DNA of 64,000 bases from a virus, in the IMG/VR virus record IMGVR_UViG_3300027850_000002, positions 1-64,000 of that record. The stretch is one strand, 5' to 3'. The translations under genes were made by a program, and so were the position numbers. Positions 1-21,389 of this stretch are shown here, piece after piece. Position 1 is the stretch's first letter. Each line of letters begins with the position of its first letter. Under the pieces are notes generated by a model. It did no database searches, was not told the DNA's origin, and saw nothing but the letters and a program-made list of their open reading frames with translations.

Positions 1-161
1 CCAAGGTCCACTTGGTCGAGCAGGTTCAACCAGTCCGTGTTGGGCTCGCACATCGGCGTCCACTGGTTCGGGTCACTACGACCTCGCACCTCTATCTCGT
101 AGTGGATGACGCCTGCGATGTCACGCTTCAGGTTGAAGCTGATACTCCACGTTACCGTCAT
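1..161 (-). CDS. H-C3 zinc-finger family protein (truncated by window edge)
   Basis: Manual translation MTVTWSISFNLKRDIAGVIHYE...MCEP; ATG at 161 overlaps TGA of 158..487; DxxGVIH motif. Confidence 0.65.
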   Translation of the reverse strand, partial: MTVTWSISFNLKRDIAGVIHYEIEVRGRSDPNQWTPMCEPNTDWLNLLDQVDL

Positions 162-487
162 CTCGCTAGACATTCGAAACACGTGACCACGCGAACAGGA
201 TCATCGGCCTTTCGATTCTGCACCGCATGGAACACTGTCCATGAATGTGTAACGCCCTGCTCGTCCGTCCACGACGACGGAACGATGCCCTTCTCACGCC
301 ACCAATTCGGATGGTACTCCGTGCGACGGATGCACTCGGCTCCGATCGCCTCCATCTCGGCATGCACGATGGGCGGATAGAGCGAGCCCACCATCGTGTT
401 GTACAGCTCAGTTCGTTGTTCGAAGCCTCGAAGGAGGCTCTCGTTGTCCCACTTCATCAAGTCTTCAGACACGAGGACCATAAACAT
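158..487 (-). CDS. H-C3 zinc-finger family protein with N-terminal extension
   Basis: DEQGVTH...VVTCFECLA; middle Cys not evident. Confidence 0.7.
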   Translation of the reverse strand: MFMVLVSEDLMKWDNESLLRGFEQRTELYNTMVGSLYPPIVHAEMEAIGAECIRRTEYHPNWWREKGIVPSSWTDEQGVTHSWTVFHAVQNRKADDPVRVVTCFECLAR

Positions 488-533
488 CTCCTTCCCCGAT
501 GGAACGTTGGTCCGCTCCGCGGATCATCGATCA

Positions 534-719
534 TCACACCCACGCGGCCATGCACCGCAGGCACGTCACCGTTCGTTCCTCTATCGTCTGGAACCGTCGG
601 TGAATGGGTTCATCGCAATCCCCGATGTCGATGTTGCACAAGGTCCACCACGTGTTGCCCCAAAGGTTCACGAGGTGAACGAGGCCTTCATCGATAAGAA
701 GTACAGGTTGAACTTTCAT
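534..719 (-). CDS. H-C3 zinc-finger family protein
   Basis: DEGLVH...LC...TCLRCMA; ATGA overlap start at 719. Confidence 0.7.
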   Translation of the reverse strand: MKVQPVLLIDEGLVHLVNLWGNTWWTLCNIDIGDCDEPIHRRFQTIEERTVTCLRCMAAWV

Positions 720-898
720 GACAATGGCACTTTGAAGAACGTGTCGTAGTAGATACGTGCGAGGCACGTCGGTGCATCACGGATGAGCTGCGTGTCTCTA
801 TCCGGTGCGTAGGGCCCGTAACACACCGGACGTGGGCCGAATGCTTTCATCTTCATGATGTGCACGAGCCCGTCGGAGCTTCGCCACTGTTGCTTCAT
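716..898 (-). CDS. H-C3 zinc-finger family protein (last Cys lost)
   Basis: SDGLVH...VC...PTCLARI. Confidence 0.65.
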   Translation of the reverse strand: MKQQWRSSDGLVHIMKMKAFGPRPVCYGPYAPDRDTQLIRDAPTCLARIYYDTFFKVPLS

Positions 899-1080
899 GG
901 CCGTCGCATCCGCGTCGCAATGCACCACAGACATGTCGGCATGTCTTTGCTCAAGGCCTCACCTTCCTTGGGGTGGCGCTTCGAGTAGCAGATGGGCCAC
1001 ACGACGGACGGGTTGCGCCCTATAACCAGCATCGTCTCCACGATGTGGACGATGTCCTCGTGATCGCGCCACGTCACCAC
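895..1080 (-). CDS. H-C3 zinc-finger family protein
   Basis: DHEDIVH...IC...PTCLWCIA. Confidence 0.7.
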   Translation of the reverse strand: MVTWRDHEDIVHIVETMLVIGRNPSVVWPICYSKRHPKEGEALSKDMPTCLWCIATRMRRP

Positions 1081-1289
1081 TTGATGATCCCCGGTTCGCC
1101 ATCCTTACGAATGAGACCTGAATCGAAACGGTCGAACGAGTCCGCAATGCACCACAGACACGTCGGAACCGCGATGATCACGCGGTCGGGTGGCGGTCGG
1201 TAGTGACCCGTGCACGCCATCACAAATGAACCCCCGAGCAAGATGTGCACGAGACCATCACCGTCGATCCAGAAAAGTTCTGTGGTCAC
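1074..1289 (-). CDS. H-C3 zinc-finger family protein
   Basis: DGDGLVH...AC...PTCLWCIA; GTGA overlap start. Confidence 0.7.
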   Translation of the reverse strand: MTTELFWIDGDGLVHILLGGSFVMACTGHYRPPPDRVIIAVPTCLWCIADSFDRFDSGLIRKDGEPGIIKW

Positions 1290-1483
1290 AGCGCGTCTAC
1301 CTTGGCGATGCACTGCAGACATGTGAGGACGACGTTAGCCCCGACCAGCTTGAACATGGAGCGGGTCCGAAGCGCGTAGCCTGACGTCGAGCATATGGTG
1401 TACGTATCCCACGTAACGTCGTCAGGGCCGAGGTGGACGAGACTGTTGTCGTCAACCCACTGTGCGTAACCGCTCAGGGTCAT
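1286..1483 (-). CDS. H-C3 zinc-finger family protein
   Basis: DDNSLVH...IC...LTCLQCIA. Confidence 0.7.
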   Translation of the reverse strand: MTLSGYAQWVDDNSLVHLGPDDVTWDTYTICSTSGYALRTRSMFKLVGANVVLTCLQCIAKVDAL

Positions 1484-2221: not shown

Positions 2222-2224
2222 ACA

Positions 2225-2647
2225 TCACGCGGAGAAACGTTCGATGGTGCGGCTGTACGCACGCATCAGACGCGGCGAGACAGTGATGGCCTTGATGCGG
2301 CGCAGGGCCATTGCCTTCGACGTCACGATGCTCTTTTGCTGACCTTCGGATTGGTAGCCAGCATCTTCGATGCCCCACCACACACTGTTGATGAGGGGCA
2401 CGAGCGGGATCTTCAGGACGTCGAACTGTAGACGGATGACCCGCAGCTCGTGAAGTTGCGCTCGGCCGCAGGTCATGGTTTCGAGGCACATGTTCATGTC
2501 CTCGATGTCATCCTTGCGTTTGCATGGCGGCTTTCGAAACAGCACGACGTAGTGCGCCAGCTCGTGGAGGCAGTAGTCGAGGTCTCCACTGGACCCGCGC
2601 TGCGTGTCGATTCTGTTGAAGTTGATGACGAGGTTGGTTTCGTTCAT
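2225..2647 (-). CDS. Hypothetical protein with HExxH motif
   Basis: LHELAH; ATGA overlap start. Confidence 0.55.
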   Translation of the reverse strand: MNETNLVINFNRIDTQRGSSGDLDYCLHELAHYVVLFRKPPCKRKDDIEDMNMCLETMTCGRAQLHELRVIRLQFDVLKIPLVPLINSVWWGIEDAGYQSEGQQKSIVTSKAMALRRIKAITVSPRLMRAYSRTIERFSA

Positions 2648-2856
2648 GGTGGATTCACAACCGAGAGACACCACAAACACGTCACAGGCGTGTCGGGCGG
2701 TAAGTCGAGGGGCTTCGTAGCGATCTCAGGACCAAAGTCCAAACACAGGCGATACCACACAGCGTCATCTATGATTTCATACTTCCACAGTACATGGACG
2801 ATACCGTTTACATCGATGACGCGCGCGTGCACGAGGGTGTAGTTTGGTTCACCCAT
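2644..2856 (-). CDS. H-C3 zinc-finger family protein
   Basis: DVNGIVH...LC...VTCLWCLS. Confidence 0.7.
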   Translation of the reverse strand: MGEPNYTLVHARVIDVNGIVHVLWKYEIIDDAVWYRLCLDFGPEIATKPLDLPPDTPVTCLWCLSVVNPP

Positions 2857-3031
2857 CGCGAGCCACGCATTGCAGGCACGTTGCAAGCATGTAGGGCGGT
2901 TTCGGTCTGACCCACTTCTCGCCATGGCAATCGCCGCCACACAGGAAGTAGAACAACATACCGTTGTAGCCACGGTCCACGTGCTCTCGCACGACGTGCA
3001 CAAGGTTATTTTTGCGGTCGAAGAGTGTCAT
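2849..3031 (-). CDS. H-C3 zinc-finger family protein
   Basis: DRKNNLVH...LC...ATCLQCVA. Confidence 0.7.
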   Translation of the reverse strand: MTLFDRKNNLVHVVREHVDRGYNGMLFYFLCGGDCHGEKWVRPKPPYMLATCLQCVARDG

Positions 3032-3228
3032 GGGTTTCTTTTCGCGATGCACTCGAAGCACGTGGGAACTGCATCAGCGCACCAGCGCCACGCGAGAATC
3101 GTGTCTTCGCTGGCGCATTCGACGTAGACCGTGCTGCCTAGATGTTCGTGCTCGGTCTGAGAGGCGATATGGACCAGTCCGTCCTTGCGCTCGAGACTGC
3201 GGATGCTTCGGTAGTGGACGTCGGTCAC
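3028..3228 (-). CDS. H-C3 zinc-finger family protein
   Basis: KDGLVH...EC...PTCFECIA. Confidence 0.7.
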   Translation of the reverse strand: MTDVHYRSIRSLERKDGLVHIASQTEHEHLGSTVYVECASEDTILAWRWCADAVPTCFECIAKRNP

Positions 3229-3416
3229 AGGTCGAACATCCGCCCCGGGCGGTTCCCTAGACACGTCAGGCACGTTGGAAACCCTTTCTCATTCACGGTC
3301 TGAAGAAAGACCTTGGGCGCGTTGCACAAAACGTCGTAGTTCCATGGCTGCATGGGATCGACGATTGCGATGTGAACGACGTGGTTGCGGTCCCTAACCA
3401 GGACCGACGCCGACAA
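3225..3416 (-). CDS. H-C3 zinc-finger family protein
   Basis: DRNHVVH...LC...PTCLTCLG; TTG start after GAGGAG. Confidence 0.7.
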   Translation of the reverse strand: MSASVLVRDRNHVVHIAIVDPMQPWNYDVLCNAPKVFLQTVNEKGFPTCLTCLGNRPGRMFDL

Positions 3417-3699: not shown

Positions 3700-3739
3700 T
3701 TCGTCACGTTTTGGTTCCGTCATTGCATTCCTTACAGGT

Positions 3740-4051
3740 ATGTCGAAACGAACTACGCCCACATCTGAAGCCGTCTCCACACAAGGTCCCGAGACCACTC
3801 CGGATGTTGCAGAAAACCCGTTCCGTGCCGAGGCCGAGGCGAACATGGCCAAGATGGACCGGCTGCGTCTCGAGCACATCGCGCAGGAGCGCGGTGTCAC
3901 AGTCGCACAGCTGCTCGAGGCGGACGGGGCGCAGGCGCCCACCAAGCCCGCAGGTGACTCCCCTCGCAAGAAGGCTGTTACGGGCGTGCTGGAGGCTGTC
4001 GAGCATGTGAAGGAGTCGATTCGCGAATCCGAAAAACACGCACGGCACTAG
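3740..4051 (+). CDS. Hypothetical protein
   Basis: MSKRTTPT...; divergent plus-strand ORF with GC3-rich codons. Confidence 0.5.
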   Translation: MSKRTTPTSEAVSTQGPETTPDVAENPFRAEAEANMAKMDRLRLEHIAQERGVTVAQLLEADGAQAPTKPAGDSPRKKAVTGVLEAVEHVKESIRESEKHARH

Positions 4052-4323
4052 TCGTCATCGTCTTGATAGCTAGTGCCGTCTTCGTCAACGTCATCGAAGA
4101 GATCCCGTGACGGCGAATCGACGAACGTGAACCCGACGCACGTGAAGCAGGTGAGCACGGGCTCGTCTGTCACCTCAGCGTCTCGCACCACGCCGTCGTC
4201 GTGTTGGGGCGCGTACATACGGTCACTGCCGACACGCAACGCTGCGTGGATGAGTCCCTTGGAGCACTTCAGGTGCAGTACCGGGAACTTTGCGCCGTCG
4301 AGCGTGACGATGTCGCCGATCAG
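4048..4323 (-). CDS. H-C3 zinc-finger family protein (start uncertain)
   Basis: Frame open upstream of the track start: CSKGLIH...VLTCFTCVG; no ATG/GTG found. Confidence 0.55.
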   Translation of the reverse strand: MIGDIVTLDGAKFPVLHLKCSKGLIHAALRVGSDRMYAPQHDDGVVRDAEVTDEPVLTCFTCVGFTFVDSPSRDLFDDVDEDGTSYQDDDD

Positions 4324-5219
4324 AATTCACCCAGCAGGCGACGAAACGCGTTGGTCAGCTGGTTTGCGTACCATTTGTAGTACGCCTGCTTGGTCCATCC
4401 ATCCTCGGGATCGTAGTTGTCCGCGAGCATGAAGCCCTGGTGGTCGACGTTGAAATGAACACCACGCTCGTTGACGTTCACTGACCAACGTTTGCCCTGT
4501 GGACATTCGCTACCTGCGAGTAGTGTTCTCTCGCGCGGCTTCGCTTTCAGGTGCGGCCTATATGCAAGCCAACCATCGACCGTCCAGTTGACGACCCACT
4601 TCTGCTTGGCGTCTGCCGCCCAGTCCGGCCCGATCAACTCACGCAGATGCTCTTCATCGGTGAGTCCAGGGTAGCGTGGCAAGTAGCCGAGCTTGGAAAT
4701 CAGCTCTTGGGTGAATTCCATCCAAGGCAGCCCGCCCTCGCGCGGTGCACTGTCATCGACGATGCACGCGTTGCAGCGAGATGTGCCTGTTGACTCGTGC
4801 ACGTGTTCCCACGGCAGCCCAGTCACGGCGTTGTAGAGCCACGGAGGCGATTTCTGCGTCGTTCCATGGTTGTCCGGATTCCGTGGGTATGTGGCCGCAT
4901 GGGGACGACTGATTTCAGCAACGTCCACGCACCACAATCCACATAGATCGCATTGCTCGTGGTCGGGCGTGCGGGGCTCGGTCGGCGCCTTTCGCTTTGC
5001 CTTGTTCGCCGCGTTCGCGCTCTTGTAGCTCTCGCGCTTCGGCTTCTTCGCTGGCACACAGATACATGGCGGCGTTCCGTCATGGATGGCACGACGTGCC
5101 TTGCACTTTACTTCAACGCGATCGTAGTGCCCCTCTCCCTGTGGGATCGATACGTATTGACGCTTGCGCGTCGTCTTCTTTTTCTTAGGTGTCATCTTCG
5201 TCCTCCGAAGTCCAGACAA
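4320..5219 (-). CDS. Hypothetical Cys-containing protein
   Basis: 299-aa ORF, basic N-terminus, CxxC pairs. Confidence 0.6.
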   Translation of the reverse strand: MSGLRRTKMTPKKKKTTRKRQYVSIPQGEGHYDRVEVKCKARRAIHDGTPPCICVPAKKPKRESYKSANAANKAKRKAPTEPRTPDHEQCDLCGLWCVDVAEISRPHAATYPRNPDNHGTTQKSPPWLYNAVTGLPWEHVHESTGTSRCNACIVDDSAPREGGLPWMEFTQELISKLGYLPRYPGLTDEEHLRELIGPDWAADAKQKWVVNWTVDGWLAYRPHLKAKPRERTLLAGSECPQGKRWSVNVNERGVHFNVDHQGFMLADNYDPEDGWTKQAYYKWYANQLTNAFRRLLGEF

Positions 5220-5430
5220 CCACCACTGTTGTTACGGTTAGCTTGACGCCGTACCGCGTACCGCACTTCTCACATGTTACTGGACCGTGTCGGTTGACGT
5301 CCGTCAGGACGTCCGACGGCGCCTCCTCGAGTGTGTACTCCATGAGCAAGCAGTCGCCGCTCTTGGACTGAAAGCCCGCGACGGTTTGACACGTCGGACA
5401 CGGCACGTTGACGGTATCGAACATGCCCAT
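5185..5430 (-). CDS. Small zinc-ribbon phage protein
   Basis: MGMFDTV..CPTC..FQSK..C..CEKC. Confidence 0.65.
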   Translation of the reverse strand: MGMFDTVNVPCPTCQTVAGFQSKSGDCLLMEYTLEEAPSDVLTDVNRHGPVTCEKCGTRYGVKLTVTTVVVVWTSEDEDDT

Positions 5431-5432
5431 GA

Positions 5433-5651
5433 CTACTTCTTCTTCCTCTTGGGCTTGGCCTTCGTCTTCACGGGACCAACGACGTCCCACTCCATCTCGC
5501 ATTCACCTTCCGAAGATAGACGGCGGTACACGTTGCTCTCGTCGACGAAGTTCTCGATGTCCATCCCGTTCTCGAGGTTGGCGAACTCAGCGTCCGTTAA
5601 CGCCTTCGTCAAACGCATTTCTAATCGCACAGTGACTTCGATGGTTTTCAT
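5433..5651 (-). CDS. Hypothetical protein
   Basis: 72-aa ORF in the operon flow. Confidence 0.5.
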   Translation of the reverse strand: MKTIEVTVRLEMRLTKALTDAEFANLENGMDIENFVDESNVYRRLSSEGECEMEWDVVGPVKTKAKPKRKKK

Positions 5652-6051: not shown

Positions 6052-6267
6052 TCAAGCGAGCGCACACACGAAGCACGTCGGAACACGGGGTTCTTTCGTC
6101 TTCGCAAAACTACGCGGAGAAATCGTTACGACGTAGACGGGTTCACACGGCAGGTACACAACCGTGGCCTTGCCAAACGATTCCCAGTCCGTGACAACGT
6201 GCACGAGCCCATCGCGCTCGAAGTAGCGACGCTTCTTGTTAGGGTCGAGAACGCGCGGGTTTTTCAC
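6052..6267 (-). CDS. H-C3 zinc-finger family protein
   Basis: ERDGLVH...PC...PTCFVCAL. Confidence 0.7.
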   Translation of the reverse strand: MKNPRVLDPNKKRRYFERDGLVHVVTDWESFGKATVVYLPCEPVYVVTISPRSFAKTKEPRVPTCFVCALA

Positions 6268-6453
6268 GGCCGCCCTTTTCGCCGATGTTCCGCGATGCAC
6301 CAGAAGCAGGTGGCCTCGGGCGCGTCATCGTCCGCGTGGCATTGGTTCAGGTAGAGCGCGTACTCCGAGAGACACCACGCGACTTTTGAGCCGTTTGCTA
6401 TCAGGTACCGCGTGATGTGCGATGCCGGTTGAATCGATCCATCGAATGACCAT
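6264..6453 (-). pseudogene. Frameshifted H-C3 zinc-finger gene
   Basis: GGAGG-ATG(6453) gives MVIRWIDSTGIAH in one frame; WC...ATCFWCIAE lies in another; restoring 2 nt near 6417 rejoins them. Confidence 0.6.
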
Positions 6454-6465
6454 CGGCCTCCGTGT

Positions 6466-6500
6466 CGAAAAAAGAAGGCGCCGCATTCCTGCGACGCCTC
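6466..6500 (-). terminator. Intrinsic terminator closing the repeat array
   Basis: Minus strand GAGGCGTCGCA-GGAA-TGCGGCGCCTT (11-bp stem incl. G-U, GNRA loop) followed by CTTTTTT. Confidence 0.85.
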
Positions 6501-7681
6501 CAGTATAGCCCCTCCAGTGATCACTAGACCAATCCGCTCACAGCGTTTCCAATGCAGCATATCCAGTCATTCGCATGCACGTCCTCACCTCCGTCGTCCG
6601 TTCTATCACCGCGTTTCCAGTCATCCCCGCCACCATGCATGACCATTCCTTTGGCGTTACCGCCATTGTTTCCCGTTTAACACCCATCCAATCACCCCAA
6701 ACCCATTGCAGCCATTCCGGTGCGGTGTGCTCCCATCAGAGCCAAGCCTTCACGGCCCGTTCCGGTGCAGCCATACCATTGCTCTCCGAAGCATTGAATG
6801 CCCCGAGTTTCCCCTGCAGCTGTCCCCCTGTATCGTAGCCCTAACATCACCCGTGCACGCCTATGCGGCCCTACATCTCCAGTGCTTTCCTTCGACGCCT
6901 ACCGTAGGCCGCTCCGCTCCAATGCCGCCGTTCCTTTATCTTGCGGACCACTCGACGCCTCACGCTTCCTATGCAGCCATTCCTAACCGCCTACTTTCCC
7001 CACGCCTCCGTGCCCCACCTGTGACCTCGCCGCCTCTGCAGCTTCTCCACTCGTCACAGTGCCAACCATCACCCGACATTTCCTTTGCAGCCTTTCCGAT
7101 GTGCTCCACGCGAGACAAGTCCTACGTTGTCCACTGCCGCCGGTCCGTTGCCGCCCCGCCCTCTCCACGCGCATCGCACCTAGTCCATAGTACGCTTCGC
7201 GCACCCGCCCCAATGCTGCCTTTCCATCCCTCAACTTTCACTACCTATCAGGTCATTTCCGGTGCTGCCGTTCCAATGCGTCCACTTCATATCCCATGAC
7301 GTCCTGTCGCAATGCGGCAAGTCCGCCCGGCACCACTGCTCGCTCTTCCTCACGCAACCTATACAGCCTATCCACTCCACGCAGTTGACGTCGCACCCTT
7401 ACACCTCATCCACGCTCCACTGCCGCCCTCGCAATCGCGCCCTTCGACTCCTTACATCCACAATCCGATGCAGCATCTCCATTAAGATCCAACACGGTCC
7501 TGACCCATCAGGTCCGGTCGCCTCCCCTGCCGCCACTCACTCAAAAAACAACCCGCAAATCGAATCCATTGCTCTCCGATGCGATCGTTTCCTCACCCTT
7601 CAGAACCAACCCCACGCCGCCTATCCAATGACGTCCGGTGAAGATCGAACCAGCCTAGACGTTCCCTCTGCAGCCACTCAC
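6501..7681 (-). ncRNA. Array of 21 pentamer-periodic units (NN-GGH)n punctuated by a TGCA/GGCA-like tetramer; putative VIPR-like guide RNA array
   Basis: Plus-strand tgcNgc(c)-like motifs at 6504,6553,6607,6658,6707,6766,6815,6864,6923,6972,7037,7086,7135,7214,7263,7313,7362,7421,7469,7528,7615,7669; 16 of 21 spacings equal 5n+4; internal (t/g/a)cc-NN period; no credible ORF. Confidence 0.8.
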
Positions 7682-7685
7682 CCTC

Positions 7686-7716
7686 ACGCCGCGTTGCTGT
7701 CGAGGCAACGAAGCGT
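7686..7716 (-). other. Leader hairpin between partner gene and array
   Basis: acgc..cgttgc(7692-7697)/gcaacg(7705-7710)..gcgt inverted repeat. Confidence 0.5.
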
Positions 7717-7727
7717 AAAGCCGCTGG

Positions 7728-8258
7728 CTACTTCTTCTTCGTCTTGGCCTTCTTCACCGAAGCCTTGACCGCACGCATCGCAGCCATGATGCCAGGCATC
7801 GCAGCCTTGGCCCACCCGTACTTCGCGTGCCGCGCCTTCCACGCCTCGAGCTGCGCGAGCGCCTGCTCGATGACCTGGTCGGCCAGGTCCGGCGTGTCGA
7901 ACACGAACGTTGCGGCCTCGTAGCTGCGATGGTTTTCCGAGTCCCGTACGTTGAAGTACATTTTCATCGGGACCTTCTTGCCCTTGGCGTCCTCGAGCAC
8001 CACCTCGATGGAACGGAGCAGAGCACGCGCCTGCGTCAGCCGAAACTGATGGGCTGCTTTGTGATCGTCCCATTCGAAGTAGCGGTACATCGGCGAGCCG
8101 GTTTTGCTCGCCTCATTGAGCACACGCTCTGCCGTCAACAGTCCGGTCTTCTTGAGCTGCTCGAAGATCTGGCCGAGCACCGGAGCATCCGATTCGCGTA
8201 CCCGAGAGCCGGGCGCGACGCGAAAGGTCATCTTCACGCCTGGTTTTCCTGCCGTCAT
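7728..8258 (-). CDS. Conserved phage protein, accessory partner of the RAMP-like gene
   Basis: LTAERVL..A....SP....FEWDD..AA..FRL.QAR.L.R signature; sits between the RAMP gene and the array. Confidence 0.75.
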   Translation of the reverse strand: MTAGKPGVKMTFRVAPGSRVRESDAPVLGQIFEQLKKTGLLTAERVLNEASKTGSPMYRYFEWDDHKAAHQFRLTQARALLRSIEVVLEDAKGKKVPMKMYFNVRDSENHRSYEAATFVFDTPDLADQVIEQALAQLEAWKARHAKYGWAKAAMPGIMAAMRAVKASVKKAKTKKK

Positions 8259-8279
8259 TCATTTCTCCTTGGTCAACAA

Positions 8280-9281
8280 TCACAACCCGAAGTTCTTGCG
8301 CATCTTTGCGATCTGCTCGGGCGTCGCGTTCGCGACCAGGTCTTTGAAGCTCCCGTCCAACTTCTCCAACTTCGGGCGACCCGGCGGACGACCGGGCGGA
8401 CGCTTCAGCACCTTGTTGGCCACGGTCACACCGTTGCTCTCGCTCTTCTTGGGGCGCCCCGGCTTGCGCTTCATCGGCGGCGCATCATCGAGAGCCGAAG
8501 CCTCGACCACCTTCTTCGGGCGACCCAGCTTCTTCTTCGGCGCATCCACGACCTCGATGCCATCCTTCGCAGCCTTGGCCCGACCACGTGCCACCTTGGC
8601 GTCGTCCTTGGCGGCCTGCGCTGCCATCGTTTCCTTTGCAGCGATCTGAGCAGCTGCGCGGGCCTGCTCGATGATCTTCTTGCTGGCACCTGCCGGGAAC
8701 ACGTCGAACCGACCGTAGTCACCGCCCTTCTGCGGGCGCCACTCACCGACGCCGTTCTTGGCACCGGCATGCGCGAGCAGCGTGACCACCTGGTGCGGTG
8801 TCAGGACGGAGGCGTCGAAGCCGATGCGGAGCTTGCAGCTCCAGCCCGGGAACTCGGGGCGATAGGCCAACGAGGTCTTCGCCATGCCGCCTTGACCGAC
8901 ACGGACACGTGCCGTGTTCATGATCGGCTTCTTGCCCGTGAACTTGATCGGGATGAGGTCGCCGACCACGTAGACGCCCTGTTCGACGTTGCCACGTGGG
9001 ATCTGGAAGTAGCCGCCCATTGCGGCCATGCCCTTCTTGAACCAGATCGCCTTGACGCAATCCTCGCCCTTGGTGTTCTTGATGCGCGCGCGCTCGCACT
9101 CTTCCTCAGGCACGCGCGGTGCCTTGGTGCGCGAGGCGTTGCCGCCCTGCTTGCGTGCGATGTCGTCCTGCGTCTTCTCGTCGAAGCGCTTCACGAGCAG
9201 GCTGGTGCGGCCGACAATGTCGACCTCCAGTTCCGTGGTCTGAATGTCAGGGACGATGATTCCGAGAGTGTTCTTTGCCAT
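8280..9281 (-). CDS. Cas7/RAMP-like (Vipr-like) RNA-binding protein with AT-hook C-terminal tail
   Basis: N-terminal beta strand then GRTSLL; AYRPEFPGWSCKLRI; C-terminal Gly-rich loop AGAKNGVGEWRPQKGGDYGRF; tail KKLGRPKK, KRKPGRPKK, RPPGRPPGRPK. Confidence 0.75.
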   Translation of the reverse strand: MAKNTLGIIVPDIQTTELEVDIVGRTSLLVKRFDEKTQDDIARKQGGNASRTKAPRVPEEECERARIKNTKGEDCVKAIWFKKGMAAMGGYFQIPRGNVEQGVYVVGDLIPIKFTGKKPIMNTARVRVGQGGMAKTSLAYRPEFPGWSCKLRIGFDASVLTPHQVVTLLAHAGAKNGVGEWRPQKGGDYGRFDVFPAGASKKIIEQARAAAQIAAKETMAAQAAKDDAKVARGRAKAAKDGIEVVDAPKKKLGRPKKVVEASALDDAPPMKRKPGRPKKSESNGVTVANKVLKRPPGRPPGRPKLEKLDGSFKDLVANATPEQIAKMRKNFGL

Positions 9282-9370: not shown

Positions 9371-9550
9371 CTATGGCGCAAGCTTAGGAACGGCCGACGT
9401 CGCGTTTTCACGGGCGATGCATGCAAGACACGTCACGAGCTTTGGTTCGAGGTCGATGACGACAGGCGCCTCGTCTTGCCAGGTACGGATCCACTCGCAC
9501 CACTCGTTGCTTACGTAGTGGACGAGACCTCCTGTATCCGTACATGTCAC
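9371..9550 (-). CDS. H-C3 zinc-finger family protein
   Basis: DTGGLVH...WC...VTCLACIA. Confidence 0.7.
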   Translation of the reverse strand: MTCTDTGGLVHYVSNEWCEWIRTWQDEAPVVIDLEPKLVTCLACIARENATSAVPKLAP

Positions 9551-9711
9551 CAAGGTTTCCACAATCGACTAATAACGCACCAGAAACAGGTAGGGAAGCG
9601 CGCAGACCCTTGCTCGGGTACGCCATCCATCCGCTTGTTGCAACACGTCCAGTCGGGGAACCGTTTCGTAACAACGTGAACTACGCCTTCATGATCAGTG
9701 TACGTAGTCAC
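9547..9711 (-). CDS. H-C3 zinc-finger family protein (54 aa, missing from ORF track)
   Basis: Manual translation VTTYTDHEGVVHVVTKRFPDWTCC...FPTCFWCVISRLWKPW. Confidence 0.7.
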   Translation of the reverse strand: MTTYTDHEGVVHVVTKRFPDWTCCNKRMDGVPEQGSARFPTCFWCVISRLWKPW

Positions 9712-10240
9712 GCAGGTCTTCCTTAGCGAGGCACTGCAGACACGTGATCATGACTTGGTCGCGGACCAACTGAAGCTTGGCGTACCGCTCGGTGGTCATC
9801 TCGTTGACGTAAAGTAGGCGTCCGTTGCGTTCACAAAGAGGGTAGAGGTCAAGAGGCTTCCGCGCATGGACGATCCCGGCTACGTCAGCCATTGGGACGG
9901 CCCCTGCCCGAAAGTCTTGGACGATGAGCTTTCCCCTGCGTGTCAGCGTACGTTCGTGGTCAACGTAATCAGATTTGACCAATCGTTCGAGGGCTCCTCG
10001 ACTCAATGAGAATGTTTCCCCTCGTGCATTCGTTTCTAGCCACAACCGTGCACGCGAGGACATCGTGAGCGGGTTGTCCATCTTCAAACAACCCGGACAC
10101 GTTGGCGTCTTGTCACTGCGTTCACCTGTGTCGTAGTACGAACCGCACAAAGTCCAAACAGGGCCGGCGGCCTTCTGCGTCTTGGTCTCGTGGATGACGT
10201 GCCAGACGTACCCACGTTTAACCTTATAGGTTGTCTTCAT
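9695..10240 (-). CDS. Double H-C3 zinc-finger protein with central winged-helix-like segment
   Basis: YVWH..LCG..PTCPGC; LERLVKSDYVD..TLTRRG; DVAGIVH..LC..ITCLQCLA. Confidence 0.7.
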   Translation of the reverse strand: MKTTYKVKRGYVWHVIHETKTQKAAGPVWTLCGSYYDTGERSDKTPTCPGCLKMDNPLTMSSRARLWLETNARGETFSLSRGALERLVKSDYVDHERTLTRRGKLIVQDFRAGAVPMADVAGIVHARKPLDLYPLCERNGRLLYVNEMTTERYAKLQLVRDQVMITCLQCLAKEDLRDYVH

Positions 10241-10458
10241 GGTTCTGCGCTCCTTGCCAGACACGCGAAACATGTGGTTGGTGGAGGTGTTGTTACAACG
10301 AAACAGACTTCGTCGATCGTTCCACCGTTGTGTGAGAACGCTTCGATGATGTCAGGGTCTATAGTGAACAGAATTTCGCACACCGTCTTGCCCCAGTGAT
10401 CTTCATCCTCGGGCCGGAACTGTACGTGCGCGAGTCCGTCATCTGTCTTGATGAGCAC
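10237..10458 (-). CDS. H-C3 zinc-finger family protein
   Basis: DDGLAH...VC...TTCFACLA. Confidence 0.7.
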   Translation of the reverse strand: MLIKTDDGLAHVQFRPEDEDHWGKTVCEILFTIDPDIIEAFSHNGGTIDEVCFVVTTPPPTTCFACLARSAEP

Positions 10459-10459
10459 G

Positions 10460-10663
10460 TTACAACGGGCCTTTATCTAGCTCGCGATCCACCATCGCGA
10501 TGCATTGGATGCACATGGGGAACTGTCCAGGTTCTGGCTTGAACGAGCTGTTGAGGTATTGCTCTTTGCCGCAGACGAGGAGGATGCCTCGCATCTCGTA
10601 CTTCCAATGTGTGACACCGTAGTTGTCGGTGAAAAGTGTGATGTTGTGTACCGGCCTATCCAT
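10460..10663 (-). CDS. H-C3 zinc-finger family protein
   Basis: DNYGVTH...VC...PMCIQCIA. Confidence 0.7.
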   Translation of the reverse strand: MDRPVHNITLFTDNYGVTHWKYEMRGILLVCGKEQYLNSSFKPEPGQFPMCIQCIAMVDRELDKGPL

Positions 10664-10838: not shown

Positions 10839-11094
10839 GGCTTACGGGTCTCGGAGGGATCGCAACAGGTAGTTGACGGCGTTAAGCGTGTCGTGCACCA
10901 TGTTGATATCCCCTCTCCGATGCGACGTTTACCCGATAATCTCGTGCCCGCCATGAAGCCCCTTTGCTTCTATTCCATGTTCTCGGCTGAGCAGTGCCCC
11001 AAGGCTCTGGCTTGGATGGCAGCGCTTTGCGCTTCCACGGGACGCGGACATGACGCTGAGCAGTGGCTGATCGAGCTGATCGAGTCGGTGCTGT

Positions 11095-11310
11095 TCACCC
11101 ACCAGAACGTCGTTCGGCCGACCGAGATTGCGCTGCGAGACACTGCAAGCATGTCGTGATCTTCCGACGGGTTGGCTCGAGCTGCGCTGACGGCCAGATG
11201 GAAACTTCGCCAGCGCCCTCATAGTTTTCGCAGGCGGTCACACGTACACCCAGCTCATGGTCTTGTGCATCGTGCACGAGCCCGTCGGGGTCTAGGTAGC
11301 GGCGAGGCAT
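11095..11310 (-). CDS. H-C3 zinc-finger family protein
   Basis: DPDGLVH...AC...TTCLQCLA. Confidence 0.7.
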   Translation of the reverse strand: MPRRYLDPDGLVHDAQDHELGVRVTACENYEGAGEVSIWPSAQLEPTRRKITTCLQCLAAQSRSAERRSGG

Positions 11311-11489
11311 TGAAGACAGGTCACGGGTTGGTGAAAGACTTCTTCCATGTCCCGCATGTTGAGGTCAAACCCGCCGACGTCATCGGCTTCGCAGACCATG
11401 AGCGAGTTGGCTCCAAAGCTCCCACCGCAGACGTGAACGAGGCCTTTTCGGTCCCGGAACGTCTGTGGTTCACGCTTTTTCCACGTCAT
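11292..11489 (-). CDS. H-C3 zinc-finger family protein
   Basis: DRKGLVH...VC...VTCLQCLA. Confidence 0.7.
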   Translation of the reverse strand: MTWKKREPQTFRDRKGLVHVCGGSFGANSLMVCEADDVGGFDLNMRDMEEVFHQPVTCLQCLAAT

Positions 11490-11869
11490 GCACCCGCCTC
11501 CGCGATGCACCAGAAGCAGTAGACGGGGTCGTGCTCCCAGATCGCGTGGTCGTTGACGATCTCCTCGAGTTCGCCGGCTAGTTCCGTCAGGGCCGTGTGC
11601 ACCATGTCGTCGTAGTAACCGCCGCCCGCCATGAAGCTTTGCCTCGACTCGTACGCACATCCGCCGAGGTAGTCACTGCACGTAATGCCTTTGTACGTGG
11701 CCGACACTTTGACAATGCACCACGCCCATTCGTTGCCGCGAGCAAGCTGATCCCGAATCCACTCCACACATGTTGGGTCGTCAAACTCTCCAACATAGCT
11801 TCGGTCCTCGGGTTCGACGAAAAGTTTGACTGCCGCGACCTTTTTCAGCTTCTCTAGGTCGATCTTCAT
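11486..11869 (-). CDS. Conserved phage protein ending in a captured CxxC tail
   Basis: GNEWAWC..V.A...DYLGGC.Y...GGYYDDM followed by YCFWCIAE. Confidence 0.65.
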   Translation of the reverse strand: MKIDLEKLKKVAAVKLFVEPEDRSYVGEFDDPTCVEWIRDQLARGNEWAWCIVKVSATYKGITCSDYLGGCAYESRQSFMAGGGYYDDMVHTALTELAGELEEIVNDHAIWEHDPVYCFWCIAEAGA

Positions 11870-12078
11870 CGTCCTTGCCACCGTTCTTCGACGATGCGAA
11901 CGGCGTCGTCCTGGTCCGCGGCGTCGCCCCATCCACCGCGAGCGTCTCGCCATCGCCATGCAGGCCCGGTCCCCCGGTTCACAGGCTCGAAGTTCTTGAA
12001 TTCGACTTCGCCGGTGACGACACCGTCGATCACAACCTCGGCGCACATGGTGCCGGGCTTCTTACGCAGCTCAGTCAT
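11866..12078 (-). CDS. Hypothetical protein
   Basis: ATGA-coupled ORF MTELRKKPG... Confidence 0.5.
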   Translation of the reverse strand: MTELRKKPGTMCAEVVIDGVVTGEVEFKNFEPVNRGTGPAWRWRDARGGWGDAADQDDAVRIVEERWQGR

Positions 12079-12521
12079 GGTTTTCCTTTCGCCCAATAGG
12101 CGATGCAGTCGAAGCACGTGACGGCTTCGACCTGCGGTCGTCGTCCGACAGCCGTTTCGATTCCGCATGAGAATTGAAACGTCGGATCCGCCCACGAGAT
12201 GCACTTGAACGCTTGATGGACAGTACCCTCGTGTTCGACGAGCATCTTCTCGCCGTTGTTGTAGTCTCTCGCGCGGACGGTTTGCTGCTCGCGGTCCTTC
12301 GTGATGATGTCTTCCGTTTCCTCGGACGCATACCAACCACGTTCCCGATCTTCGAGGTCGACGACTTCTTCTTCGTTGTACGGATTGATCTGGACGGCAC
12401 CACAGTGGCGGCATACGGCCGCAGTCACTTGTTGCATGCCGACGCCATTGTCGACGTACTCCGCGTCTGTATCACGCGAGCCGCACCAACCGCAGGTCAC
12501 CACTGGATGCAGGTCAGGCAC
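12075..12521 (-). CDS. Zinc ribbon fused to H-C3 finger
   Basis: CGWC..CRHC then HEGTVH..SC..VTCFDCIA. Confidence 0.7.
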   Translation of the reverse strand: MPDLHPVVTCGWCGSRDTDAEYVDNGVGMQQVTAAVCRHCGAVQINPYNEEEVVDLEDRERGWYASEETEDIITKDREQQTVRARDYNNGEKMLVEHEGTVHQAFKCISWADPTFQFSCGIETAVGRRPQVEAVTCFDCIAYWAKGKP

Positions 12522-12745
12522 GTGATTGACGGTGCGACCTCAAGCGAGCCGGGGTCGCCACTGTTGATCGCGCGGCAGGGGCACATGAAGTTGAGGTACG
12601 CAACGCCTTGCGCGACGTTCCACTCAACATTGTACACTGCCGTAATGACCAACATGTGTCCAAGTCCATCAGGTCCGATGACGATCTCGTGATCGCCGAC
12701 CTTGGGCAGTGTGCGTGCCTGCGCCAGGACTTCGTTGAGCTTCAT
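12497..12745 (-). CDS. H-C3 zinc-finger family protein
   Basis: GPDGLGH...MC...ITCLTCIQ. Confidence 0.7.
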   Translation of the reverse strand: MKLNEVLAQARTLPKVGDHEIVIGPDGLGHMLVITAVYNVEWNVAQGVAYLNFMCPCRAINSGDPGSLEVAPSITCLTCIQW

Positions 12746-14005: not shown

Positions 14006-14006
14006 G

Positions 14007-14777: not shown

Positions 14778-14782
14778 CGCAT

Positions 14783-17509: not shown

Positions 17510-17517
17510 TGGTCTTT

Positions 17518-18105
17518 CTATTTGTGAAAGTTCATCCACATGCGACTAGCCTGTGGTCTTGGATCACGTCCGTCGCGGTATTTAGCGTTCGGTTTGCTGT
17601 CGTAACCCTGTTCCGGCGCCCCGGTTTCAAAGTAGATGAGTTGCCCGATAGGCATGCCTGCGTAGACTCGGACAGGTTGGACGACATGTATTTCAAGAGT
17701 CCAATGACCTTTGTATAATACATCGCCACGTCCCGCAGTACAGTGGATCGTGATTCCGAGCCGCCCGATACTGCTTTTCCCGTCGAGGAAGGGAACGTGC
17801 TTGAGGCTCTCGGTGTACTCGCTCGTCGAGCCGAGATAGAGCGTGCCCGGAATCAGCACGATTCCATCCGTCCCGATTTCGTATGCGTGCGTTTCATGCT
17901 CGACTTTGCAGTCGAGCAGTCGGGGCACCAGGTTCGGCGTCGTGCGGCCTTCGTTGATGTCGGGATAGCCTGTGGCGTACGTCAGGATTGTTGACCCTAA
18001 GTGCACGTCGTACGAGTTGCTTCCAAGTGCACTTGGGTCAAACGGGTCGATAACGATGTCACCCTTCGCCATCGCCTCCTTGATCATCTTGTCGCTTAGG
18101 ATCAT
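17518..18105 (-). CDS. dcd: dCTP deaminase
   Basis: MILSD, SYDVHLG, GKSSIGRLG, TAG.GD..YKG..TLEI, IGQL.YF. Confidence 0.92.
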   Translation of the reverse strand: MILSDKMIKEAMAKGDIVIDPFDPSALGSNSYDVHLGSTILTYATGYPDINEGRTTPNLVPRLLDCKVEHETHAYEIGTDGIVLIPGTLYLGSTSEYTESLKHVPFLDGKSSIGRLGITIHCTAGRGDVLYKGHWTLEIHVVQPVRVYAGMPIGQLIYFETGAPEQGYDSKPNAKYRDGRDPRPQASRMWMNFHK

Positions 18106-18294: not shown

Positions 18295-18579
18295 TCAGCG
18301 TCGGGTGGGTTTGGTGGTCGCGTTACGTACGAGCCACGTTTCAACGAGGTCGTCGACGGTTTTGAGGATGTCCTTGTCCTCGTTGGCAAGCACGATGGTC
18401 GCTTCCAGCGCCACATCATCCATACGGGCTTTGACGCGGTACTGGTAAGCCGTGTAGCCGAGGACCAGCACGCCGACGTCGCACTTGTCGGGGAACACGA
18501 ATCCCTTGATGCGCTCGACGTCGAGCGAACGCCTGACCTGGTCTCCGAACTTCTGGGTCACTTCTTCTTTGTTGAGCAT
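18295..18579 (-). CDS. Hypothetical protein
   Basis: MLNKEEVTQKFG... in the operon flow. Confidence 0.5.
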   Translation of the reverse strand: MLNKEEVTQKFGDQVRRSLDVERIKGFVFPDKCDVGVLVLGYTAYQYRVKARMDDVALEATIVLANEDKDILKTVDDLVETWLVRNATTKPTRR

Positions 18580-18845
18580 CGATAGTCCTTCCCAAACGCG
18601 TCGACAATGAGGCACTCCGTACAGGTTGGAGGACCTGGTGTGATTCGATTTTGGCTGCCGGGGTTCAGCTTGGCGTGACGACCACATGCAAGCTCCGCTT
18701 GGCGATTGGGGTCGAGTCCCACGCCGTTTGCGTCGATCCGAACGTCTTGTTCGAATCCGGACCAGCTGAGCCAGCGCAGGACGATGTGAACGCCGTCGTG
18801 ACGTTTCATGTACCAGGGAGGCCGCGCGACAGACAAAACAGACAT
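18558..18845 (-). CDS. H-C3 zinc-finger family protein
   Basis: HDGVH...LACG...PTCTECLI. Confidence 0.65.
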   Translation of the reverse strand: MSVLSVARPPWYMKRHDGVHIVLRWLSWSGFEQDVRIDANGVGLDPNRQAELACGRHAKLNPGSQNRITPGPPTCTECLIVDAFGKDYRCSTKKK

Positions 18846-19060
18846 GTGACGACCTCCTTGGTTGGGGTTCCGTTTGACGGGTCTTGCATCCAGAGCCCGC
18901 GTTCGCGGCATGTGAAGCGTAGGTTCAACGGCAACACTGAGCGTGGAGCGTCGACAGCCTTGCGCAGTGAGAATTCAACAGGAACCCGTTCTCCCACGAT
19001 GTCCCAAGCCTCAGTGACGATATGGACGACTCCATCCGGATCTTGAAACCGTCGGCTCAC
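18806..19060 (-). CDS. H-C3 zinc-finger family protein
   Basis: DPDGVVH...TC...VTCLFCLS. Confidence 0.7.
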   Translation of the reverse strand: MSRRFQDPDGVVHIVTEAWDIVGERVPVEFSLRKAVDAPRSVLPLNLRFTCRERGLWMQDPSNGTPTKEVVTCLFCLSRGLPGT

Positions 19061-19581
19061 TTGCGATCGATCACTGGATAGCCGATTTTCACGTCGCCGA
19101 GGTTTGGCCGCGACATCGCGACGGGGTTTAGAACGCTTCCACCGAACACCGCGCGTTCCATCAAAGCGATCAGGCTGCTACGCATCAGGCCGTTCGGACG
19201 CAGCTTGCGGTACTGCTGCAGCGTCTTGCCTTTGGGGTCGGCTTCGCACATCCCTTGGAAGACCATCCACTCGCGCTGCACGACTACGAGAGCGCCTGTA
19301 CACTCGTTGATCGTGTCTCGCTCGGCGAGTGCCTCATAACCCGAGAACACCGCCATTCGCGGGTCCGTTGGATGGCACGACATACGTGCTCCGTTGCGCA
19401 AGCCTTTCCATAACCGCGCCAAGTTGGCGGGAGTATAGAATTTATATGGGTCGGGTTTTGAGCTTTGATTGGCAAGACGCCATGGACAGTGCTTGCACGG
19501 CACCAGACACGCGGCTTTGACTGTGGCTGTCGACTTCAGAACCACCCTCTTTCTTCGGCGAGAGGCGCAGAGCCCCAACAC
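19057..19581 (-). CDS. Cys-rich PCxxCPWR family protein (start uncertain)
   Basis: PCKHCPWR..MSCH..ECTGAL. Confidence 0.65.
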   Translation of the reverse strand: MLGLCASRRRKRVVLKSTATVKAACLVPCKHCPWRLANQSSKPDPYKFYTPANLARLWKGLRNGARMSCHPTDPRMAVFSGYEALAERDTINECTGALVVVQREWMVFQGMCEADPKGKTLQQYRKLRPNGLMRSSLIALMERAVFGGSVLNPVAMSRPNLGDVKIGYPVIDRK

Positions 19582-19620
19582 CAGATTGTTTCGATGTTCA
19601 TCGGCTTGCGCCGCGGACCG

Positions 19621-19968
19621 TCATGGCGTCTTCGCCGTCCGGTTGATACAGCCCATGTGGGCGTAGGTCGACCGCGTCTCATCGAACCGTTGGATCTGTG
19701 TCACGTGGCTCGCGCTCGGCCCTTGGTCGAGGGGCAGCCTGCAGACCGGACAGGTCTCGGGCTTCTCCCAAATCTCGCTTCGGTCGAGCGGGACGGGACG
19801 CAGCTTGACGTCGAACTTGCGCAGCACGGCATCGATGCAGCCCCGTAGGTCCGAGTGGCTTTGCGGATAGTTGAGGTCGGCGCGCCACTCATGGAGACCG
19901 GCGATCATCGTCTCCATCAGGTCACTCGCGAGTGTTGAGAACGGTTCGCGGAGAAACGGCTTAGGCAT
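19621..19968 (-). CDS. Hypothetical protein with C-terminal CxxC..HxxC finger
   Basis: CPVC...HMGC. Confidence 0.55.
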   Translation of the reverse strand: MPKPFLREPFSTLASDLMETMIAGLHEWRADLNYPQSHSDLRGCIDAVLRKFDVKLRPVPLDRSEIWEKPETCPVCRLPLDQGPSASHVTQIQRFDETRSTYAHMGCINRTAKTP

Positions 19969-20297
19969 TAAATGTGTTTCCACTGTTTCCGGTTAACGAT
20001 GAGCGTCACCTGTTTTTGACTGACGCCAAAACGTACCGCGAGCACACGGTGTAGCGCGCCATTGGCGTGCGTCTTACGCATCGCGATTACTTGCGGTGCT
20101 GTTAGCTTGGACATTCCACTACGTTCTCCGAGGGGCGGATTTCCTCGGCCCTTACGAAGCATGTCCAGACAATTGTCTCGAGTGGTACCTTTGAACAAGT
20201 GTTTAAGGTTCACACACCATGGATTGTCACACGTATGAAGTGCCTTTTTGTTCCCTAAAGGTCCATGACGCAGTTCCCACATCACACGGTGGGCCAG
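19968..20297 (-). pseudogene. N-terminally truncated HNH endonuclease
   Basis: LAHRVMWEL..LHTCDNPWCVNLKHLFKGT..DN..DM..KGR..SKLT + HTH; no N-terminal half. Confidence 0.7.
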
Positions 20298-20470
20298 ACC
20301 ATGTCCTGTAGTTCACCCGCTTCTGTGCAGATGCCGATCATGCCGTGGAGGAGTCGCGCGAGCATGCGGTCCTGGTCACTCAACACGGTCTCGGTTGAAG
20401 CGGATGTGTTGACGAAATTCGGTGTCTTCTCCGAACGGAGTCAATCCTGTTGAAATTCATTTGGCGTCAT
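20282..20470 (-). pseudogene. MazG-like nucleotide pyrophosphohydrolase remnant
   Basis: MTPNEFQQD*LRSE...RLLHGMIGICTEAGELQDMV then abrupt junction; in-frame TGA at 20441-20443. Confidence 0.7.
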
Positions 20471-20517
20471 CGAAGCCTGATACCATAACGAGACCCCAAT
20501 TCGTTAACGAGATAAAC

Positions 20518-20934
20518 CTACGTTCGACGCCAGTGTTCCAGTATCAGCTGTTCGAACGCCCTTGTTGTTGCAGCATCGGCACCTGCGTCCCGCAGCACCC
20601 GTGCGATCTCCTCGACGGGAACGCATTTGGGGTTGTCGTAGAGCTGATGGAACTTTTCATTCCAGCCAACCAGTGGCTCGAACGTCACGCTAGCTCCCTT
20701 GAGCTTTTCGCAAACGCCTTTGCACTCGTCGCAGAGCGACATCGCGCCTTTGCGTCCGTCCTTGCCCGCTTCTGCTTCACGGGCGTACCAGGTCGGTTTA
20801 TTGGTACAGCGACCCCAACGTCCGCCGACGTCCCCGCCCATGATCCACGGGTTGTACGCTGATTTCACGTCCGCTTGGCAGCGTGCGTGATCGACGGACT
20901 CGAGTGGCGCGAGCTGGTTCGTAGCCTTGGTCAT
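20518..20934 (-). CDS. Hypothetical Cys-containing protein
   Basis: RCQA..RC..SLCDEC. Confidence 0.55.
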   Translation of the reverse strand: MTKATNQLAPLESVDHARCQADVKSAYNPWIMGGDVGGRWGRCTNKPTWYAREAEAGKDGRKGAMSLCDECKGVCEKLKGASVTFEPLVGWNEKFHQLYDNPKCVPVEEIARVLRDAGADAATTRAFEQLILEHWRRT

Positions 20935-21389
20935 GTGAGTCCTCGCAGCTTGGCCTCGACGTTGAGCACTTCGAGCCATTCCTTCCAGTCCTTCTTGAAC
21001 TCGCCCTCGTCACGCGTCAGCTTCGCGATGGAGTTGCGCAAGTGTTGTTCGTCCATCTCGAACACATAGAGCTTGCGACCGTCCTTGGTCTCCCACTTCC
21101 CGAGCCGCACGGTCTCCTCTCGGATGTAGCCCGGCACGCACGCAGGACAGCCGCGGCAGATCACACATTTCATGCACGACGGACCGTCGTACACGACGAG
21201 CGTTGGACCGAAGTGAATCCTGCAGCAGGTCAGGTATGAATCCCCGCCCTCGAGCCACGCACACGTGTGAATCAGACCGTCGTCGAATTTGTGGAAGTCA
21301 CGCGCAACGTTGTAGGGTGGTTCGTAGTTGCCTGGAACGACGCTGTTGCGTGTTGTGTGCAACAGTCGACGAGACTTCGTCGCCGTCAT
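20931..21389 (-). CDS. H-C3 finger fused to a WxTKDG phage domain
   Basis: DDGLIH..TCC..SCMKC; WETKDGRKL...MDEQHLRNSI. Confidence 0.65.
   Translation of the reverse strand: MTATKSRRLLHTTRNSVVPGNYEPPYNVARDFHKFDDGLIHTCAWLEGGDSYLTCCRIHFGPTLVVYDGPSCMKCVICRGCPACVPGYIREETVRLGKWETKDGRKLYVFEMDEQHLRNSIAKLTRDEGEFKKDWKEWLEVLNVEAKLRGLT

Follow-up and report, generated by a model that had tools for sequence, protein, structure and literature searches.

Bacillus phage SPO1 carries a host-takeover module, gp37-60, made up of small early genes whose products have been proposed or shown to redirect the host machinery. An arrangement of similar appearance -- a dense block of very small co-oriented genes, lying in the non-structural arm and belonging to no known families -- is found in IMG/VR virus record IMGVR_UViG_3300027850_000002, a contig of 175,415 bp with 59% GC; the part analysed here, bases 1-64,000 of that record, is referred to below as the window. 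The proteins of the SPO1 module are unrelated to one another, whereas here one scaffold, built around one His and three Cys, has been reused about 37 times (27 of these genes being in the window) and is common to a clade of uncultured phages. Several named groups of proteins bear comparison with it. DUF3039 (PF11238) is an actinobacterial signature protein of unknown function, exemplified by SCO2947 / ML1016 (PMC4255298). It has a conserved segment between the His and the Cys and is found as one conserved copy per actinobacterial genome, in contrast to the roughly 37 divergent copies of the phage family. In the treble-clef class, a CxxC ligand pair lies at the N-terminus of a helix (bioRxiv 10.64898/2026.04.01.715805). 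The uncharacterised Pfam family zf-HC3 (PF16827) is likewise small, with a putative ligand set of one His and three Cys; it and DUF3039 come closest to the phage proteins among named families.

The phage genes form a new, unnamed and widespread family of His-Cys3 mini-domains, for which no Pfam or PHROG name and no resembling solved or viral predicted structure was found. The explanation that we favour, and to which we give an even chance of being right, is that they make up a panel of small, target-specific, metal-stabilised binders for host takeover or counter-defence. The family was defined by a profile hidden Markov model (HMM) built from 121 single-domain metagenomic relatives, with which 3,371 open segments in all frames of the 175,415-bp contig were scanned. 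This gave 38 domains, every one on the minus strand: 26 (in 25 genes) at 158-21,389, one at 64.0 kb and 11 at 156.3-165.0 kb. The other frames and the other strand of the contig, which serve as an internal control, gave none. A six-frame motif scan for [G/N/S]-[LIV]-x-H, followed after 24-62 residues by [T/S/M]-C-x-x-C-[ILVMA] near the C-terminus, found 27 minus-strand matches, all within 1-21.4 kb of the window, and nothing comparable, with the upstream His motif and the near-C-terminal position, in 22-64 kb. With 11486-11869 and 12497-12745 added by motif and orthology to the 25 genes of the HMM, the window holds 27 genes and 28 domains. The preliminary description, made from the sequence before any search, had proposed about 27 minus-strand genes of one family between 1 and 21389; the number is borne out and the family is real, with further copies beyond that stretch.

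The same description had noted that little besides an H-C-CxxC pattern is conserved, and this too is what the relatives show: the only invariant columns in the 121 sequences are one His and three Cys. Nearly invariant besides are the Gly that precedes the His by three residues and the Thr in front of the CxxC. The central Cys was absent from the filter by which the 121 sequences were selected, so that its invariance is an independent check. Ligand spacing across the relatives is His-x(8-27)-Cys-x(13-36)-CxxC. Between paralogues the loops differ almost completely, with a mean column identity of 8-15%, and the isoelectric points (pI) range from 4.1 to 9.4, 13 copies being acidic (pI 4.1-6) and nine basic (pI above 8). 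The likely genes encode 54-181 amino acids (aa), with a median of 70. Scans of the members against Pfam and PHROG gave only noise. The members in the window are as follows; E-values are those of the HMM from the 121 relatives unless the first HMM is named, and P-numbers denote gene calls or clusters in the protein database:

3-182, minus strand: open reading frame (ORF) cut by the contig end, with I-A-G-V-I-H; possibly the N-terminal half of a further member, unscored by the HMM because its C-terminal half is missing
158-487, minus strand: weak member, 109 aa, with GVTH and TCFEC and no central Cys; E 4e-3
534-719, minus strand: member, 61 aa; E 5e-13; ATGA at 719; identical to P0044
716-898, minus strand: member, 60 aa, last Cys replaced (T-C-L-A-R); E 2e-10; ATGA at 898; its orthologues P0024, P0049 and P0089 retain the CxxC
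895-1077, minus strand: member, 60 aa; E 4e-13; GTGA at 1077; AlphaFold model 1, made on the 61-aa ORF 895-1080
1074-1289, minus strand: member, 71 aa; E 2e-14; identical to P0019, with look-alike clusters P0020, P0023 and P0026; GTGA at 1289
1286-1483, minus strand: member, 65 aa, first gene of its run; E 3e-11; identical to P0017
2644-2856, minus strand: member, 70 aa; E 3e-9
2849-3031, minus strand: member, 60 aa; E 3e-10; likely orthologue P0025; ATGA at 3031
3028-3228, minus strand: member, 66 aa; E 4e-11; likely orthologue P0046; GTGA at 3228
3225-3416, minus strand: member, 63 aa; E 3e-10
4048-4326, minus strand: degenerate member with an acidic tail and no central Cys; E 1e-3; its first ATG/GTG/TTG (4239) is downstream of the GLIH strand
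6052-6267, minus strand: member, 71 aa; E 4e-11; identical to P0014; GTGA at 6267
6264-6560, minus strand: variant member, 98 aa, without DGLVH and with C-terminal T-C-F-W-C-I-A; E 3e-4; P0006
9371-9550, minus strand: member, 59 aa; E 3e-9; orthologues in L004 (61%) and L010 (51%); GTGA at 9550
9547-9711, minus strand: member, 54 aa, AlphaFold model 2; E 2e-14; orthologue set at 69-76%
9695-10240, minus strand: two-domain member, 181 aa; E 1e-7 and 2e-6; orthologues at 40-61%; overlap at 10240
10237-10458, minus strand: member, 73 aa; E 1e-5; orthologues in L004 (44%) and L010 (37%)
10460-10663, minus strand: member, 67 aa; E 2e-9; orthologues at 65%
10656-10838, minus strand: member, 60 aa; E 5e-10; L010 orthologue at 57%; P0002, P0003 and P0033
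11095-11310, minus strand: member, 71 aa; E 1e-12; syntenic L010 counterpart at 36%
11292-11489, minus strand: member, 65 aa; E 1e-12; identical to P0012; ATGA at 11489
11486-11869, minus strand: variant, 127 aa, recognised by motif and alignment only, with C-terminal D-D-M-V-H ... Y-C-F-W-C-I-A and no central Cys aligned; its counterpart L010:7509-7901 (46% identity) scores as family
12075-12500, minus strand: 141 aa, an N-terminal CxxC...CxxC ribbon-like segment joined to a C-terminal family domain; E 5e-5; L010 orthologue at 56%; GTGA at 12500
12497-12745, minus strand: member, 82 aa, with a long His-to-Cys loop; E 1.9e-5 with the first HMM; identical to P0005, with orthologues P0004, P0008 and P0010; ATGA at 12745
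18558-18809, minus strand: member, 83 aa, with D-G-V-H, one residue fewer before the His; E 9e-6; identical to P0027; ATGA at 18809
18806-19060, minus strand: member, 84 aa, with a long His-to-Cys insert; E 9e-10; GTGA at 19060
20931-21389, minus strand: 152 aa, a family domain with extra Cys (C-R-G-C-P-A-C) and an 80-aa C-terminal extension; E 6e-4; near-identical to P0009 (two residues differ), no Pfam match

The genes are arranged in runs at 158-1483, 2644-3416, 9371-12745 and 18558-19060, and their chaining by ATGA or GTGA start-stop overlaps, as first described, was verified at 14 junctions (719, 898, 1077, 1289, 3031, 3228, 6267, 9550, 10240, 11489, 12500, 12745, 18809 and 19060), in agreement with independent gene calls in the protein database. 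They lie, again as described, on both sides of a block at 6561-9281. Additions to the basic domain are limited to tandem doubling, the ribbon-like N-terminal segment of 12075-12500 and the C-terminal extension of 20931-21389; no fused form of at least 206 aa was found among the family matches. Three copies in the window are degenerate, one with CxxR for CxxC (716-898) and two without the central Cys (158-487 and 4048-4239), and with the loss of the last Cys in the first and the His strand of 4048-4326 lying upstream of the usual starts, these same three show decay.

A HMMER search of 1.84 billion representative proteins gave 197 matching clusters at E<=1e-3, about 190 of which appear to be real members; the matches listed are mostly proteins of 50-100 aa or tandem two-domain forms with the same signature, and a few long repeat proteins among the 197 are spurious. 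Scans of IMG/VR with two window proteins found no relatives, and cultured phages gave no DNA-level match to the genome and no protein match to the one family member tried. His-Cys3 arrays are present in every related locus and are a lineage-wide trait of related large phages:

L010, a syntenic contig of 157 kb: 13 domains in 13 kb
L008, a contig of 75.6 kb: 24 domains in 20.5 kb
L001, a contig of 18 kb: 11 domains in 12.8 kb
L002-L009, short contigs: 4-9 domains each
L012, a 20-kb piece of a 192.7-kb contig from the Joint Genome Institute (JGI): 41 domains in 20 kb

The L012 piece has only two other proteins in common with this phage and belongs to a more distant large phage. One of its paralogue pairs has 51% identity, so that some duplication is more recent in that lineage. 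For a bacterial virus it is exceptional to carry so many paralogues: about 37 genes on one scaffold in this 175-kb phage, and as many as 41 domains within 20 kb of its 193-kb relative.

Within the block at 9.3-12.5 kb, each copy has a positional counterpart in L004 or L010 with 36-80% identity (bit scores 37-244), while the best paralogue of each copy has 27-38% identity (bit scores 23-41). The syntenic 6.8-10.3 kb block of L010 has 11 family genes, and all of them follow the order seen in the window. No paralogue pair above 39% identity and no recent duplicate was found in this genome. For 14 orthologue pairs analysed by the Nei-Gojobori method (NG86), the ratio of the proportions of nonsynonymous and synonymous differences (pN/pS) is 0.21-0.79; the corresponding ratio of substitution rates (dN/dS) was computable for 13 pairs, being 0.08-0.31 in 12 and 0.60 in one (11095-11310 and its L010 counterpart), and with dS saturated (1.1-3.4) these figures are akin to upper bounds and understate the constraint. 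Orthologues of one set conserve the His-to-Cys loop and the C-terminal tail as well as they do the scaffold. The "hypervariable interiors" of the preliminary description thus hold between paralogues and fail between orthologues: with conserved orthologues and low dN/dS, the interiors are paralogue-specific rather than hypervariable. Nor did its "diversified binder library" survive in the sense of active diversification, given the gene order conserved in L010 and L004, the lack of recent duplicates and the lack of any match in the genome to a reverse transcriptase (RVT_1; template repeats were not searched for). What the family amounts to is an old and fixed panel in which copies are gained and lost slowly. 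Given the age of the copies and the conservation of each, they probably have separate jobs.

AlphaFold2 models were made for two members with 38% mutual identity, using paralogues or relatives as the alignment. Model 1 (ORF 895-1080) has a mean predicted local distance difference test (pLDDT) score of 87.9, model 2 (9547-9711) one of 83.8, and the two agree in topology, with the CxxC at the start of a C-terminal helix that follows three strands; this is in line with the expectation that members have a common fold. The order of elements in both is a strand; a second strand with the His at its start; a short strand, then the Cys; a long loop; and the helix. As modelled, the last two ligands (CxxC) sit at the helix N-terminus as in treble-clef proteins, which are likewise small, the phage domain being putatively metal-stabilised. 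Unlike treble-clef and zinc-ribbon proteins, the first ligands are a His and a Cys 8-27 residues apart on different strands, with no CxxC knuckle. Foldseek found nothing at E<=0.001 in the PDB or BFVD, and among 48,161 chains the best VIA-align matches of the two models were PWWP/Tudor-like barrels, at noise-level Z scores of 3.3 and 2.7; no treble-clef or zinc-ribbon chain of the PDB was matched (the same best Z scores, Foldseek E above 3). Man1, the sole PDB match of both family profiles, at 16 bits, was rejected as due to chance. When the ESM-Atlas was searched by shape with model 1, the best match was an Actinomycetota cluster of 78 aa, with a template-modelling (TM) score of 0.79 and a root-mean-square deviation (rmsd) of 2.0 across 59 residues, and the next three matches are Actinomycetota clusters as well; a feature search of the same atlas found unnamed viral clusters only (score 0.85). 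PDB entry 3rms (Saccharomonospora viridis Svir_20580) appeared twice, with Z 2.6 when folds were searched with model 2 and with E 0.62 when the DUF3039 profile was the query, and both matches are too weak to be used.

The preliminary description had likened the pattern to zf-HC3-type fingers, and at the level of sequence this finds no support. The curated Pfam threshold of 25 bits is not reached by the family, and the zf-HC3 model has no match at E<=10 in the six-frame genome, none among the 28 window members and one among the 121 relatives (E 0.036); nor was zf-HC3 found in 5 + 301 Actinomycetota genomes sampled. The resemblance is one of fold only: 23% of the members of the cluster that is the top ESM-Atlas match of model 1 carry zf-HC3, both sides of that comparison being predicted models. 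DUF3039 is the better link as judged from sequence. Its four ligands are the same, in the same order and with similar spacing, the pattern being H ... (A-L-)C-G ... P-x-C-x-x-C at the C-terminus, with a C-terminal signature P-V-C-P-x-C-K-E against T-C-L-x-C-[IL]-A in the phage family. The N-terminal domain of 9695-10240 (10082-10165) scores 18-20 bits against Pfam DUF3039 (19.6 at best), below the cut-off of 22.7, while the other 27 of the 28 window sequences have no match to that model. Thirteen DUF3039 domains collected from Actinomycetota genomes show H ... A-L-C-G ... P-V-C-P-x-C, and hhalign of the family profile against them gave a probability of 56% and an E-value of 1.1e-4 over 44 columns, with all four ligands in register. 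Distant homology to DUF3039 is likely, not established.

The family is essentially absent from cellular genomes. In 401 Actinomycetota genomes the family profile has weak matches in three, of which the one in G231, an unpublished genome, falls within a frame of 301 aa and appears to be due to chance. L031:1483-1665 (plus strand), in an Actinomycetota genome, is a 60-aa ORF with G-V-V-H ... C ... T-C-T-A-C (E 1.7e-5) and no Pfam family, adjoining a gene for a UvrD-like helicase, and is possibly a relative of cellular origin. In 185,579 GTDB species genomes, a degenerate DNA pattern that covers D-G-L-V-H ... T-C-[LF]-x-x-C had 18 matches, all of them out of frame and so due to chance, and neither host nor prophage was found. 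WhiB, an actinophage marker, was not found in the phage and gives no host evidence either way.

If the panel of binders is what these genes encode, the members would be stand-alone mini-domains of about 55-85 aa, each with a three-stranded sheet followed by a C-terminal helix, in which one metal ion, most likely zinc, probably holds the fold together through the His at the start of strand 2, the Cys after strand 3 and the CxxC at the helix N-terminus. The scaffold would be a distant relative of DUF3039, folding like zf-HC3-type proteins, which this phage lineage would have expanded long ago; each paralogue would now be an orthologous line of its own, in which purifying selection has preserved a particular charge and particular loops and tails. 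Expression would proceed in translationally coupled chains from the minus-strand, non-structural arm. Through these loops and tails each copy is envisaged as binding a different partner, in most cases a host protein and in some possibly a nucleic acid, and together the copies would act as a fixed panel of small modulators in host takeover or counter-defence. The anti-defence or host-takeover role already suggested in the preliminary description is a reasonable conjecture.

That so many very short ORFs, three of them degenerate, in high-GC DNA rich in spurious frames might not be genes at all, being chance frames or decayed remnants, has next to no probability for the bulk of them and is refuted there by the empty control frames (zero HMM matches in the five others), by conservation between orthologues at the protein level with pN well below pS, by the four invariant residues common to the 121 single-domain relatives and by the confident AlphaFold models; for 4048-4326 and 158-487 it is possible. 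An actively diversifying library, in which recent "accordion" duplicates or mutagenic retrohoming would renew the loops in an arms race, would account for the almost wholly different loops of the paralogues, for orthologues somewhat more diverged than their neighbours and for the few decaying copies, but it is very improbable and largely refuted: syntenic orthologues share 36-80% identity with dN/dS of about 0.1-0.3 for most pairs, paralogues reach 39% at most, no reverse transcriptase was found and loops are conserved within orthologue sets.

Nucleic-acid-binding regulators are a less unlikely alternative, though still an improbable one. Here the copies would be zinc-finger transcription or RNA-binding factors that program a phage RNA polymerase or host transcription, each at different sites. 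Small Cys/His metal fingers often bind nucleic acids, nine of the copies are basic, and some members are tandem two-domain forms. Yet 13 copies are acidic, and a spread of pI from 4.1 to 9.4 with more acidic than basic members fits ill with one common nucleic-acid ligand; DNA- or RNA-binding families in Pfam, PHROGs and the PDB gave no match, and about 37 such factors in a genome of this size are, on general knowledge, far above known phage programmes. A further and less likely alternative is that the proteins have a common physical or chemical task, in buffering metal, in redox or iron-sulphur (Fe-S) chemistry, or as small components of a structure or of its assembly. The metal site is the only universally conserved feature, and His-Cys3 ligand sets occur in some Fe-S proteins. 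A bulk role nevertheless fails to explain paralogue-specific loops and tails held under purifying selection in a conserved order, and the structural module, on the plus strand at 37-57 kb, is a long way from these genes.

Several observations count against the panel of binders in turn. An arms race is not demonstrated, the family orthologues being only modestly more diverged than their conserved neighbours, with a median identity to the orthologue of 49% against 63% (p 0.04, n=11 each; neighbours without a match were left out, which biases the comparison). Sigma-70-type promoters and terminators are not enriched upstream of the runs, and in about 30 intergenic regions a crude k-mer search detected no common motif beyond the level of shuffled controls; with no shared promoter signal, calling the genes early has their position and strand as its only basis. 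His-Cys3 sites can also hold Fe-S clusters, so zinc is no more than the likeliest metal. The link to DUF3039, lastly, is moderate (56%), and Cys-rich profiles can inflate such scores.

Were the copies each to have their own job, the family would be a compact, testable catalogue of small phage effectors, and it may also explain the role of the actinobacterial DUF3039. More tentatively, and with a distinctly lower likelihood than the panel of binders as such, the clade of large phages may have turned a cellular core scaffold (the DUF3039/HC3 of Actinomycetota) into some 40 metal-stabilised mini-binders, each fixed on a different host target; such a set would resemble the small-scaffold binder libraries made by engineering, except that it has evolved and is inherited. 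This would point to an actinobacterial host, provide a route to the function of DUF3039 and yield ready-made inhibitors of bacterial proteins by the dozen. Should the copies prove to be plain regulators or dispensable, they would still be a new and widespread family of small putative metal-binding proteins worth a database entry.

The record is classed in IMG/VR as linear, with an estimated completeness of about 94% (CheckV). From 1 to 36 kb of the window nearly all genes are small and on the minus strand, while the large plus-strand genes at 37-57 kb, which include one for a 1208-aa protein with an M23 peptidase domain, are probably the structural module. Genes with recognisable products include those for a dCTP deaminase (17518-18105), a ParB-like protein (21953-22999), a DinG-type helicase (33937-36042) and a ribonucleotide reductase with an ATP cone (58229-60481); the majority of the remaining window genes are without any match. 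No transfer RNA (tRNA) and no Rfam family was found in the region of the His-Cys3 genes. Another small Cys-rich protein, of 105 aa with two CxxC pairs, is encoded at 5185-5502 (minus strand); it lies outside the His-Cys3 family and has weak zinc-ribbon-type matches only.

Within the block that the family genes flank, 6561-7727 is a non-coding stretch of 1.2 kb whose plus strand is rich in C (GC skew -0.27 over 6-8 kb), with neither a tRNA nor an Rfam family. It is the "array" of the preliminary description and holds about 20 degenerate copies of T-T-C-C-n-n-T-G-C-A-G-C-C-n-T-n-C-C some 50-60 nucleotides (nt) apart, with a strong terminator-like hairpin beside it at 6501-6474 on the minus strand. 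The DNA of this stretch appears to be conserved in L008 (about 14.7-15.5 kb) together with both genes upstream of it, and is missing at the syntenic place in L010. The 333-aa protein encoded at 8280-9281 has as its only match PHROG 4652, of unknown function. Inside the longest run of family genes (9371-12745), a 256-nt gap at 10839-11094 has no family gene and no supported ORF on either strand, and may be a regulatory region or an unrecognised small gene. The sole clear plus-strand gene of the first 20 kb, at 1673-2221, is divergent from the run at 158-1483 and encodes a response-regulator receiver domain (PF00072, E 2e-18); this phage-encoded protein has a homologue with 36% identity in L008 (6897-7445), there too on the strand opposite to the array genes.

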